Position numbers and translations under genes: made by a program | Part shown: in pieces, positions 49,378 to 62,468 of the stretch | How positions within the stretch are numbered: the stretch's first letter is position 1 | Layout: each line of letters opens with the position of its first letter | The notes under the pieces: model-generated | Told to the model about the DNA's origin: nothing | The model's database searches: none | Seen by the model: the letters and a program-made list of their open reading frames with translations, nothing else | Assembly (NCBI GenBank): GCA_964016885.1 | Contig: OZ024742.1 | Location: forward strand, 203,484,001-203,548,000 | Reading direction: 5' to 3' | DNA length: 64,000 nt | Origin: Eledone cirrhosa | Taxonomy: Eukaryota

Positions 49378-49522
49378 CTATATTAAAACTATATATATAT
49401 ATATGTATATATATATATATATGTATATATATATATATATATATATATATATATATATATATATATATATATATATATATATATATATATATATATATAT
49501 ATATATAAATCAATACAATATA

Positions 49523-49600
49523 ATTACCTCATTACCAGAGGTTTCCCGAATGAGGCGAATACGAAATAAACGACTTCATTCGTTCGTCAGACGAGGCAAT
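49523..49600 (-). ncRNA. Type I hammerhead ribozyme at the presumed 3' end of the Naiad-type PLE
   Basis: Minus strand ATTGCCTCGT-CTGACGA-ACGAATGA..TCATTCGG-GAAACC(TCT)GGTA-ATGAGGTAAT; 10-bp stem I. Confidence 0.75.
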
Positions 49601-50778
49601 ATAAAACATGGGCAAATACTTAGGAAAACACATCAAGAAAATCAAAAAAAGATATAGATAAATGAAATAGAAATTGAAATATATAAAAATCTATCAAGAA
49701 ATATAGTTAGGTGTGTGTATATGTATGTATATACGCTCACAGATGTGCATATATGTATATGTACATGTACATGTATAGTGAGAAAGTGTGCGTAATTCTA
49801 AAATAGGGCAAATGTATCTATATGTCTGTATTATACAAACAGAAATGGTTACATCGTAAATATACGAATACGAAGGCGCGCGTATAAAACGCCTGGACAC
49901 TCGTACGCTTAGGTGCGGAAAGAAAGAAGGTAAGGGAGTGTAATAATTAAGAGAAAAGGGTCAGTCTCGATATATTTATAAAAATATAATAACGATAAAT
50001 TAGAAAGAAAAAATTAAAGAAAACAAAAAAAGGGGGGTATATACATACACAGACACGCGTGTCTCACAAAAGAAATGTAAAAATAATTATGCTTATATAA
50101 ACACGCGCACTTACACTTCCATACGTTCGATACGTACATACACACACACACACACACATACCTATACTCACGCATATAAACCTGTTTACATGCCCACGTA
50201 TGAAACTGAGTAAGTAAAAAAAAGGAAGAGGGGGGGGGGAGAAGAAAAAAGGAACAAAACATAAAACCGAGATGTCAAAAACACGGATATAAAGACACGT
50301 ACACATACGCATAATATATACATACACACACACACAAACACCTGTACACACACACACATATACACATACACACACACATATACATACACACACATACACA
50401 CACGCACGCGCGCGCACATACGTAGTCACTCATTTACATATATAAAAAAAAGTATACACACATTAAGGCGTTCAGCCATATTGAAATGTGGATAAATAAG
50501 TACAAATATAAAATTGTAAGATAGGCTGCGCAAAAATAAAATAAAAATGAAAATATCTGGATTGAAAAACACAAAAGACAAGTGTAATCAGTTAGTGGAG
50601 GAAAAAGGGAAGTAAAAGAACGGGAAGTAAAAAATAGAAAATAGGAAGTGGATCGGAGAATAAAGGGGGGGGGGAATGTGAAGTAAAAATAAATAAAAGT
50701 GAAAATAAATGAAATTATTGACAAGGATAAAAATGAAAGTAAGTCAGAAAGGGTAATTAAAAAGAGAATAATAAGAGT

Positions 50779-58300: not shown

Positions 58301-61300
58301 CTCGAATTATTTTCGCGGATATAGGGGTCATCTCCCTTGTCTAATGCCATGTGCGTTTTTCACCGCTAGTTGACTCCTTTGCCGCCAGGATAAAACTCGT
58401 TGACAACGTAAACTCCATTCCACTTATTCTAGTAGGCTTTTATATTTATATGTGAGCTGACAGAGTACAGTCTAAGGATTTACAGAAACCCATGAAGCTA
58501 GATTTAACACCTTTCTAGTGGGTCCGGGTATGATTTTACATTCATTTAAATTATTGACGTATTGTTTTATTGATATTTTTTATCTGTTTGGCCCGAATCT
58601 TCCTTTATCGATTTTAAATCGTATGGTTGATTGTAGACTTGTTCTATATGTGACGGTATTTTAACGATAGTTATAGCTCTGATTCATCTGAATTATTGAG
58701 CCCTCTGCCGCTCATATCGGATTTCGTTTTTCGTTAACTCGTGCGCCGATTTTTCGATACTCGATCTTTCTAATATATTTAGCTCTGGACATAGCTATCC
58801 ACCAGTTAATTTTATTGCTCATATTTTGTCGATTCTATTGAGTGATGAATAGCTTTTGTTTTATTTTAACATGTCTATTGAGCACTCTAATTCGATATGT
58901 GTATTTCCACATTCACTCGAATTATTTTCGCGGATATAGGGGTCATCTCCCTTGTCTAATGCCATGTGCGTTTTTCACCGCTAGTTGACTCCTTTGCCGC
59001 CAGGATAAAACTCGTTGACAACGTAAACTCCATTCCACTTATTCTAGTAGGCTTTTATATTTATATGTGAGCTGACAGAGTACAGTCTAAGGATTTACAG
59101 AAACCCATGAAGCTAGATTTAACACCTTTCTAGTGGGTCCGGGTATGATTTTACATTCATTTAAATTATTGACGTATTGTTTTATTGATATTTTTTATCT
59201 GTTTGGCCCGAATCTTCCTTTATCGATTTTAAATCGTATGGTTGATTGTAGACTTGTTCTATATGTGACGGTATTTTAACGATAGTTATAGCTCTGATTC
59301 ATCTGAATTATTGAGCCCTCTGCCGCTCATATCGGATTTCGTTTTTCGTTAACTCGTGCGCCGATTTTTCGATACTCGATCTTTCTAATATATTTAGCTC
59401 TGGACATAGCTATCCACCAGTTAATTTTATTGCTCATATTTTGTCGATTCTATTGAGTGATGAATAGCTTTTGTTTTATTTTAACATGTCTATTGAGCAC
59501 TCTAATTCGATATGTGTATTTCCACATTCACTCGAATTATTTTCGCGGATATAGGGGTCATCTCCCTTGTCTAATGCCATGTGCGTTTTTCACCGCTAGT
59601 TGACTCCTTTGCCGCCAGGATAAAACTCGTTGACAACGTAAACTCCATTCCACTTATTCTAGTAGGCTTTTATATTTATATGTGAGCTGACAGAGTACAG
59701 TCTAAGGATTTACAGAAACCCATGAAGCTAGATTTAACACCTTTCTAGTGGGTCCGGGTATGATTTTACATTCATTTAAATTATTGACGTATTGTTTTAT
59801 TGATATTTTTTATCTGTTTGGCCCGAATCTTCCTTTATCGATTTTAAATCGTATGGTTGATTGTAGACTTGTTCTATATGTGACGGTATTTTAACGATAG
59901 TTATAGCTCTGATTCATCTGAATTATTGAGCCCTCTGCCGCTCATATCGGATTTCGTTTTTCGTTAACTCGTGCGCCGATTTTTCGATACTCGATCTTTC
60001 TAATATATTTAGCTCTGGACATAGCTATCCACCAGTTAATTTTATTGCTCATATTTTGTCGATTCTATTGAGTGATGAATAGCTTTTGTTTTATTTTAAC
60101 ATGTCTATTGAGCACTCTAATTCGATATGTGTATTTCCACATTCACTCGAATTATTTTCGCGGATATAGGGGTCATCTCCCTTGTCTAATGCCATGTGCG
60201 TTTTTCACCGCTAGTTGACTCCTTTGCCGCCAGGATAAAACTCGTTGACAACGTAAACTCCATTCCACTTATTCTAGTAGGCTTTTATATTTATATGTGA
60301 GCTGACAGAGTACAGTCTAAGGATTTACAGAAACCCATGAAGCTAGATTTAACACCTTTCTAGTGGGTCCGGGTATGATTTTACATTCATTTAAATTATT
60401 GACGTATTGTTTTATTGATATTTTTTATCTGTTTGGCCCGAATCTTCCTTTATCGATTTTAAATCGTATGGTTGATTGTAGACTTGTTCTATATGTGACG
60501 GTATTTTAACGATAGTTATAGCTCTGATTCATCTGAATTATTGAGCCCTCTGCCGCTCATATCGGATTTCGTTTTTCGTTAACTCGTGCGCCGATTTTTC
60601 GATACTCGATCTTTCTAATATATTTAGCTCTGGACATAGCTATCCACCAGTTAATTTTATTGCTCATATTTTGTCGATTCTATTGAGTGATGAATAGCTT
60701 TTGTTTTATTTTAACATGTCTATTGAGCACTCTAATTCGATATGTGTATTTCCACATTCACTCGAATTATTTTCGCGGATATAGGGGTCATCTCCCTTGT
60801 CTAATGCCATGTGCGTTTTTCACCGCTAGTTGACTCCTTTGCCGCCAGGATAAAACTCGTTGACAACGTAAACTCCATTCCACTTATTCTAGTAGGCTTT
60901 TATATTTATATGTGAGCTGACAGAGTACAGTCTAAGGATTTACAGAAACCCATGAAGCTAGATTTAACACCTTTCTAGTGGGTCCGGGTATGATTTTACA
61001 TTCATTTAAATTATTGACGTATTGTTTTATTGATATTTTTTATCTGTTTGGCCCGAATCTTCCTTTATCGATTTTAAATCGTATGGTTGATTGTAGACTT
61101 GTTCTATATGTGACGGTATTTTAACGATAGTTATAGCTCTGATTCATCTGAATTATTGAGCCCTCTGCCGCTCATATCGGATTTCGTTTTTCGTTAACTC
61201 GTGCGCCGATTTTTCGATACTCGATCTTTCTAATATATTTAGCTCTGGACATAGCTATCCACCAGTTAATTTTATTGCTCATATTTTGTCGATTCTATTG

Positions 61301-62468
61301 AGTGATGAATAGCTTTTGTTTTATTTTAACATGTCTATTGAGCACTCTAATTCGATATGTGTATTTCCACATTCACTCGAATTATTTTCGCGGATATAGG
61401 GGTCATCTCCCTTGTCTAATGCCATGTGCGTTTTTCACCGCTAGTTGACTCCTTTGCCGCCAGGATAAAACTCGTTGACAACGTAAACTCCATTCCACTT
61501 ATTCTAGTAGGCTTTTATATTTATATGTGAGCTGACAGAGTACAGTCTAAGGATTTACAGAAACCCATGAAGCTAGATTTAACACCTTTCTAGTGGGTCC
61601 GGGTATGATTTTACATTCATTTAAATTATTGACGTATTGTTTTATTGATATTTTTTATCTGTTTGGCCCGAATCTTCCTTTATCGATTTTAAATCGTATG
61701 GTTGATTGTAGACTTGTTCTATATGTGACGGTATTTTAACGATAGTTATAGCTCTGATTCATCTGAATTATTGAGCCCTCTGCCGCTCATATCGGATTTC
61801 GTTTTTCGTTAACTCGTGCGCCGATTTTTCGATACTCGATCTTTCTAATATATTTAGCTCTGGACATAGCTATCCACCAGTTAATTTTATTGCTCATATT
61901 TTGTCGATTCTATTGAGTGATGAATAGCTTTTGTTTTATTTTAACATGTCTATTGAGCACTCTAATTCGATATGTGTATTTCCACATTCACTCGAATTAT
62001 TTTCGCGGATATAGGGGTCATCTCCCTTGTCTAATGCCATGTGCGTTTTTCACCGCTAGTTGACTCCTTTGCCGCCAGGATAAAACTCGTTGACAACGTA
62101 AACTCCATTCCACTTATTCTAGTAGGCTTTTATATTTATATGTGAGCTGACAGAGTACAGTCTAAGGATTTACAGAAACCCATGAAGCTAGATTTAACAC
62201 CTTTCTAGTGGGTCCGGGTATGATTTTACATTCATTTAAATTATTGACGTATTGTTTTATTGATATTTTTTATCTGTTTGGCCCGAATCTTCCTTTATCG
62301 ATTTTAAATCGTATGGTTGATTGTAGACTTGTTCTATATGTGACGGTATTTTAACGATAGTTATAGCTCTGATTCATCTGAATTATTGAGCCCTCTGCCG
62401 CTCATATCGGATTTCGTTTTTCGTTAACTCGTGCGCCGATTTTTCGATACTCGATCTTTCTAATATAT
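52395..62468. repeat. Tandem array of 615-bp units, 16 full copies plus a 234-bp partial, nearly invariant
   Basis: Unit start TTTAAATTATTGACGT at 52395, 53010, ... 62235 (step 615). The only difference noticed is T>C at 55007. The array runs into (TA)n via the TAATATAT microhomology. Confidence 0.97.

Follow-up and report, generated by a model that had tools for sequence, protein, structure and literature searches.

Knowledge of satellites that carry hammerhead ribozymes goes back to newt satellite DNA. Here we analysed a 64-kb stretch of the Eledone cirrhosa genome (assembly GCA_964016885.1, contig OZ024742.1, forward-strand positions 203,484,001 to 203,548,000; the window), in which more than 16 copies of a non-coding 615-bp unit directly abut a fragment of a Penelope-like element (PLE). 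Comparison of this array with its relatives across the genome suggests that it was probably laid down as one insertion, by a reverse transcriptase (RT) that primed in (TA)n and went round a single circular RNA about 16 times.

The closest described systems are the metazoan retrozymes that lack long terminal repeats (non-LTR retrozymes; Cervera and de la Pena 2020, PMC7229834; Li et al. 2026, 10.64898/2026.07.22.740005; these and the papers below are cited for the portions that concern such elements). Like them, the window unit is non-coding and tandemly arranged, with a predicted type I hammerhead in each copy; it is low in GC, has no LTR, occurs as dispersed monomers to multimers and shares its genome with PLEs. 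Its 615 bp fall inside the published unit range of 51-972 bp (10.64898/2026.07.22.740005). Unlike the retrozymes described there, the predicted hammerhead of the window unit has the rare U3-A8 core, a 78-nt stem II and a 35-nt stem III, and the 615-bp family shows a fixed, apparently (TA)n-primed 3' end, a variable 5' end and footprints of single templates. By the features tested the unit is a non-LTR retrozyme, and as such a known kind of element; it is set apart by the non-consensus, long-armed predicted ribozyme, the fixed end with its apparent priming in (TA)n, and the apparent single-molecule footprints.

Rolling-circle reverse transcription as opposed to unequal crossing-over, and PLEs as helpers, are still hypotheses in the literature on retrozyme arrays (PMC7229834; PMC7761336; 10.64898/2026.07.22.740005). 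Circular RNA (circRNA) templates are proposed in all three papers, and Li et al. 2026 (10.64898/2026.07.22.740005) invoke local amplification. Our search of literature titles and abstracts found no report of such footprints or of a cephalopod retrozyme; most subscription papers and the retrozyme supplements lay outside that search. The DRT2 defence RT reportedly makes tandem repeats from a non-coding RNA template, in a system that is said to be bacterial, non-integrating and protein-producing and to have no ribozyme.

The PLE family at the locus shares with the Hydra PLEs (PMC8557442, Craig et al. 2021) a C-terminal endonuclease, the motifs RWK, DKT, CxCX5C, CxxC and CxH, a hammerhead, (TA)n targeting, a pseudo-LTR (pLTR) and inverted 5' partners. 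An octopus Hydra family is present in File S1 of that paper. The window family reaches 3.7 kb owing to a long 3' untranslated region, whereas published Hydra families are mostly <3 kb, and the window copy differs from them in being truncated, in carrying two stops and in having a foreign RNA as its inverted neighbour. With the Naiad clade it has in common a (TA)n preference and inverted structures. Naiads are defined by an N-terminal endonuclease and, in the part of PMC8557442 cited, by the lack of a canonical hammerhead; neither these features nor the Naiad DKA motif fit the PLE family of the window. Non-autonomous Chlamys elements such as MRC1 (PMC8557442) are alike in their PLE dependence and multicopy head-to-tail insertions. 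MRC1-type elements differ from the 615-bp unit in having the same 3' ends as their autonomous partner, and hammerheads are described there as mostly missing from Chlamys elements.

The array and its predicted hammerhead

The array spans 10,074 bp, or 16.4 copies, with a single substitution (T>C at 55007, in unit 5). At a period of 615, 10,183 of 12,000 tested positions matched; periods of 614, 616, 307, 308, 205 and 123 gave about 3,300 each. This test and a comparison of units bore out the 16 full units, 234-bp remainder and single substitution reported in a first-pass annotation of the window. Copy number and junctions are taken as they stand in the genome assembly. The annotation had also described (TA)n on both outer sides of the composite, an orientation of the unit opposite to that of the PLE fragment and the lack of an ORF in the unit, and each was found as described, with no open reading frame (ORF) of at least 100 aa within the 615 bp. 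Every arm of the three hairpins that it named is present in the unit, and the third hairpin is stem III of the predicted hammerhead.

A type I hammerhead was predicted in 16/16 full units of the window array (Table 1). A descriptor allowing U3-A8 or U3-G8 matched the unit once on the + strand and nowhere on the - strand, and matched none of 1,000 shuffled units. An Rfam search of the unit at E up to 5 gave no match; if the prediction is right, standard hammerhead searches would be overlooking abundant U3-A8 retrozymes. Unconstrained folding of the 141-nt region 52860-53000 produced a three-way junction, and the active hammerhead fold within the circle costs 3 kcal/mol above the minimum. When the unit was folded as a circle, the + strand beat its shuffles (z -3.1) and the - strand barely did so (z -1.3; 40 shuffles). 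Across 35 haplotypes, UUGA, A9 and GAAA were invariant, one copy had an altered U16.1, position 7 varied freely (10/13/12) and position 8 was A or G. Paired cells made up 99.3% in 32 aligned distinct haplotypes, with two pairs changed on both sides.

The transcript of the unit is predicted to be self-cleaving through this hammerhead. Some observations count against that prediction: both two-sided pair changes come from a single 78%-identical relative, so that the covariation is thin; the base of stem II holds a mismatch; and only one of nine predicted retrozyme dimers cleaved in the work of Li et al. (10.64898/2026.07.22.740005). U3-A8 hammerheads occur in nature and are active, and the motif tolerates mismatches at the base of stem II (PMC3088659).

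Dispersal of the 615-bp family

The fixed 3' end followed by TATATA had 775 exact matches genome-wide and its backward control 0; the internal unit-unit junction had 1,622. In a DNA search with the unit, the best 20 of 395 candidates were scored, and the arrays were spread over 10 contigs. Among these 20 homology-picked arrays, 18 shared the fixed end, one was cut off by an assembly gap and one had its end at a different TA-like site. The comparisons below cover 116 arrays in all, after the addition of 100 of the 775 fixed-end places (all on contig C1) and 7 further stretches. Subfamily identities ranged from 100% down to ~90%, with one relative at 78%. The 5' end varied across the entire unit, and (TA)n was present in 75 of 113 readable 5' flanks. 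Arrays adjoined (TA)n directly and no LTR architecture was seen; primer-binding sites and polypurine tracts were not searched for separately.

The search for dispersed copies, which the first-pass annotation had proposed, thus returned hundreds of insertions in (TA)n, so the unit is not confined to this locus. The varied, permuted ends that it had envisaged were not borne out: the 3' end was one fixed site and only the 5' end varied. On these comparisons the 615-bp family is young and mobile. A look-alike hammerhead family, considered as the parent of the unit, gave no alignment in the 3 loci tested.

Apparent footprints of single templates

The two-base haplotype of the window array was present in 16/16 units here and in 0 elsewhere in the genome. 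Array-wide differences were found in 7 of the 24 youngest multi-unit arrays, and 6 of these 7 carried at least two (the window array, L093, L101, L103, L126 and L164), which exceeds the one-cycle expectation from a single-unit error rate of 1.8e-4 per base. Such doubly mutated templates had no genomic source, and the circles may vary or replicate at the RNA level.

Four young arrays were mixed at a single site, in scattered passes. L046 carried G>T in 5 of 13 passes and stopped one base before that site, and all 4 exact matches to the variant pattern genome-wide fell inside the same array. L093/L154 comprises 27 passes; A>T was present in 6 of the final 8, and the array ended 3 nt past the site; a variant 6 nt away occurred in 26/26 full units, which argues against a polishing error. 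Two different bases were found at one site in L031, and three different errors at one site in L164. Two of the four mixed-site arrays ended within 3 nt of the mixed site (p ~8e-4, post hoc). We read the mixed sites as a damaged base in one RNA that was copied repeatedly, the lesion presumably being an oxidised G or an abasic or modified A. L123, L159 and L181 also showed mixed patterns, which were discounted as effects of the array end or of the first unit.

Array length decreased with age. The median was 11.2 units in the youngest class (n=15), followed by 1.9 (n=34) and 1.0 (n=52), with a Spearman coefficient of -0.40 (p 3e-5; 101 rows, two of them lower bounds). Short inserts were biased toward the young class, a bias that opposes the trend. 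The lengths of the youngest arrays fit an exponential distribution (Kolmogorov-Smirnov p 0.67).

The 5' ends clustered at the predicted cut site: 19 of 114 lay within 24 nt after it (p 1e-7), as did 4 of 31 ends collected later (p 0.03). L074 starts exactly at the predicted cut site and the window array 20 nt past it. This pile-up, together with a hammerhead on the + strand only, points to the + strand as the RNA. The fixed end would then be the priming site, and the array and the PLE fragment would stand head to head. A split of 5' ends into first-pass and later-pass was dropped because old arrays are possibly collapsed.

Formation of the array

Rolling-circle reverse transcription, as suggested in the first-pass annotation, is favoured by the unique haplotype, the lesion-like sites, the length-age trend and the 5' ends near the cut, and on this sequence evidence it is the probable mechanism, better supported than it was there. 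The + strand would be transcribed, and the hammerhead would release monomers that are then circularised, as the structure of the unit and other animal retrozymes suggest. A nicked (TA)n target would pair with the alternating A/U tract of the unit and prime synthesis at the fixed end that is observed. To judge by the footprints, the RT would then roll until it fell off, met a damaged base or ran off a cut end. The 5' end would be connected to the opposite flank of the target, where the left TA run is often lost (38 of 113 flanks), and arrays would shrink later. Hydra PLEs are the best candidate for the helper RT of the 615-bp family.

Several points weigh against this reading. The width of the 24-nt zone was set after the first 79 ends had been seen, and the pile-up of 5' ends could in part reflect TA-like microhomology close by. 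The mixed sites were read from a genome assembly, and the length-age trend could reflect a youngest lineage that rolls better. The transcript, its cleavage and its circular form are deduced here from structure and footprints. Xenopus retrozyme families are reported to be homologous to the PLE pLTR, whereas the window unit has no sequence similarity to the neighbouring PLE family, its pLTR included, nor to the one look-alike hammerhead family compared.

A linear template would explain part of the evidence. It could be an uncleaved multimeric transcript, or one linear monomer that the RT reads over and over, jumping back from the 5' to the 3' end in the manner of telomerase. Linear RNA should give a pile-up of 5' ends at the cut site, telomerase RT is the sister group of PLE RTs (PMC8557442), and re-reading of one linear monomer would leave identical single-template footprints. 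However, a multimer would have to contain as many as 26 ribozymes that had escaped cleavage and to come from a source array with the same haplotype, and the genome has no such source for the window array. A multimer also leaves unexplained an array that ends at its own mixed site. No two of 37 multi-unit arrays had a single-unit variant in common at the same unit index. The same 37 showed no recurrent indel, addition or scar at the 361/362 cut junction, a trace that jumping would likely leave. We consider a linear template unlikely. Growth in place of insertions of one or two units by unequal crossing-over, along the lines of 10.64898/2026.07.22.740005, would preserve end phases and spread a founder variant to every unit. 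Contiguous blocks of shared variants in five older arrays (L087, L095, L162, L175 and L178) also speak against copying of a single circle as the whole history of the family, in that some local duplication, conversion or exchange evidently occurs. Yet length goes with youth: arrays of 16-27 units, the longest seen, are also the youngest, their 155,345 bp holding 28 single-unit differences, and the old ones have few units; nor does crossing-over yield different errors at one site or array ends there. As the origin of the array it is very improbable. We give hardly any credence to an assembly artefact in array length or junction: units are nearly identical and the family arrays L048, L152 and L175 abut N gaps, but there is no N in the window, arrays of 16-27 units were found repeatedly, and the uniqueness of the 16-unit haplotype to this locus indicates that its units were not borrowed from other arrays.

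If repeated copying of one RNA circle did build these arrays, the enzyme would be a natural, highly processive strand-displacing RT, and satellite DNA could arise from one circle copied in one go, a route that has until now been a published proposal. The family is young and keeps its footprints, has hundreds of insertions and offers a defined priming site and target, so that the question is testable by census and in vitro.

The adjoining PLE and the junction

The ORF fragment of the PLE lacks the first 181 of 719 aa and has in-frame stops at 51358-51360 and 50944-50946. Both the window fragment and intact family copies carry the CxCX5C linker and the CxxC and CxH motifs, the first C of CxxC being a stop codon in the window copy. 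RWK and DKT were found in family copies L058 and L070; the corresponding region is absent from the truncated window fragment. A Pfam search of the ORF fragments matched no family. By domain order and motifs, judged against the diagnostics for the clade (PMC8557442, section 11), the RT fragment matches Hydra-clade PLEs, and the predicted hammerhead and the insertion in (TA)n are both features of that clade. The first-pass annotation had labelled it a Naiad. That label is not retained because the endonuclease follows the RT, the linker is CxCX5C, and RWK and DKT (not DKA) are present; the predicted hammerhead also speaks against it. Its statements that the minus-strand RT frame breaks off exactly where the first unit begins (52394/52395) and that the unit does not match the 3' UTR of the element both held. 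Against a full-length natural PLE copy, the best match of the unit was only 20 nt (E 0.42). The unit as a 5' part or pLTR of the PLE was ruled out by the same comparison. Genome-wide, the PLE family had 2,959 exact 3'-end matches, counting pLTR and inverted halves, and 40 scored copies were 97-99% identical to the window copy, which was itself excluded.

It is possible, and we offer it tentatively, that a currently active Hydra-type RT starts at a fixed site of a hammerhead circRNA of 615 nt and goes round it up to 27 times (16 kb), each array reading out one RNA molecule together with its damage. On that reading the locus would be one insertion whose two target ends received different copies, that of the element's own RNA at one end and that of the circle at the other. 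The PLE fragment is about as likely to be the partner strand of the array's insertion as to be a neighbour older than the array. A history in two events, in which an older Hydra copy stood in (TA)n and the array later entered TA at its 5' break with loss of the intervening TA, is as probable as not. None of 113 other arrays was fused to the window PLE family (upper 95% bound 2.6%); against this, chance adjacency to that family would produce roughly 0.03-0.05 composites genome-wide. The window junction has no microhomology, whereas 8/8 head-to-head junctions of PLE copies overlap by 1-7 nt, often imperfectly; an inverted 5' partner, on the other hand, was present in 8 of 15 PLE copies examined. 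The locus L107 has the same layout, with an internally deleted Hydra fragment that is 93% like its nearest relatives and far older than its array, which indicates that such fusions can arise in two steps. Neighbouring repeats are also clipped at the array 5' junctions of L032, L116, L074 and L031. In the other direction, direct fusions with recognised hammerhead elements were head to head in 4/4 cases (the window, L038, L107 and L182; 3/3 without the window), and that in L182 is age-matched.

The two-event history also drew on private substitutions, which number 8 in 1,280 clean columns of the PLE fragment compared with 1 in 10,074 bp of the array; three that were tested in the PLE fragment were unique genome-wide. 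However, the two halves of the PLE insertion L053 have in common a variant that is absent from the rest of the genome, which suggests that private variants need not be a clock and can be present at or near insertion. Gene conversion between the halves is another possible source of this sharing, and the same test on the PLE insertion L062 gave a match in one half only. The shared-variant rate was 16 in 4,251 columns, and at that rate 8 in 1,280 has p 0.12. Private substitutions in PLE copies L051-L070 were moreover strand-biased on the sense strand (C>A 26 vs G>T 8, p 0.015), so that part of the private variation would be strand-specific and not a clock. The argument from age for an older PLE (p 2e-7) lost most of its force after these results.

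Table 1. Positions of the array, the PLE fragment and their parts in the window
Feature	Position	Strand	Remarks
(TA)n target tract at the PLE 3' end	49390-49507	.	
5'-truncated Hydra-clade PLE	49508-52394	-	3' 2.9 kb of the 3.7-kb family
Predicted type I hammerhead of the PLE	49523-49600	-	10-bp stem I, CUGACGA core, minimal stem III; descriptor scan
ORF fragment	50779-52394	-	RT core followed by the CxCX5C linker and the C-terminal endonuclease
Junction at which PLE 5' break and array 5' end meet head to head	52394-52395	.	No gap, no microhomology to either continuation
Retrozyme array	52395-62468	+	16 units of 615 bp and a 234-bp remainder; putative RNA sense +
First of 16 predicted type I hammerheads	52860-52994	+	Last copy 62085-62219
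Stem I and core of the first hammerhead	52860-64 with 52990-94; 52865-71	+	Core UUGACAA (U3-A8)
Long stem II of the first hammerhead	52873-52948	+	
GAAA, stem III and GUC of the first hammerhead	52950-53 (GAAA)	+	Predicted cut 52989/52990
Two array-wide variants	52926-52934	+	C at 52926, A at 52934, each recurring every 615 bp
Fixed 3' end of the family and right-hand (TA)n	62463-62539	+	Alternating A/T tract of the unit merging with the target

Other fusions, hammerhead repeats and elements

In L038 (G000:C4:374053558-374055350) the 615-bp family is fused head to head with itself and bounded by (TA)n. L182 holds an old 615-bp copy head to head with an 89%-identical piece of the 469-bp family, again bounded by (TA)n. 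Arrays near the PLE copies L055 and L070 were ruled out as fusions, since (TA)n and other DNA intervene.

A second retrozyme-like array lies at 47760-49060 (+) of the window, with 3 x 430 bp and minimal type I hammerheads (cores at 48323 and 48753); in other loci, the 430-bp family likewise shows two fixed end sites in (TA)n. More tandem families were seen beside (TA)n in L055 (469 bp), L083 (310 bp), L070 (546 bp) and L062 (515 bp). The 469-bp and 310-bp units hold canonical minimal hammerheads, and about 12 hammerhead families recur in the loci examined. An ATTTCGT motif was noticed by eye within ~70 nt of the 3' ends of the PLE and the 615-, 469- and 430-bp units, and may be a recognition signal or chance.

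Three further type I hammerheads were predicted in isolated repeats of the window, at 18639 (+), 47214 (+) and 62864 (-). Two adjoining non-LTR RT elements with long frames occupy 8381-14697 (-), near (TTA)n tracts, and we take them to resemble the restriction-like-endonuclease clade. A 232-bp dimer with a tRNA-like head, presumably a short interspersed element, is located at 43399-43883.

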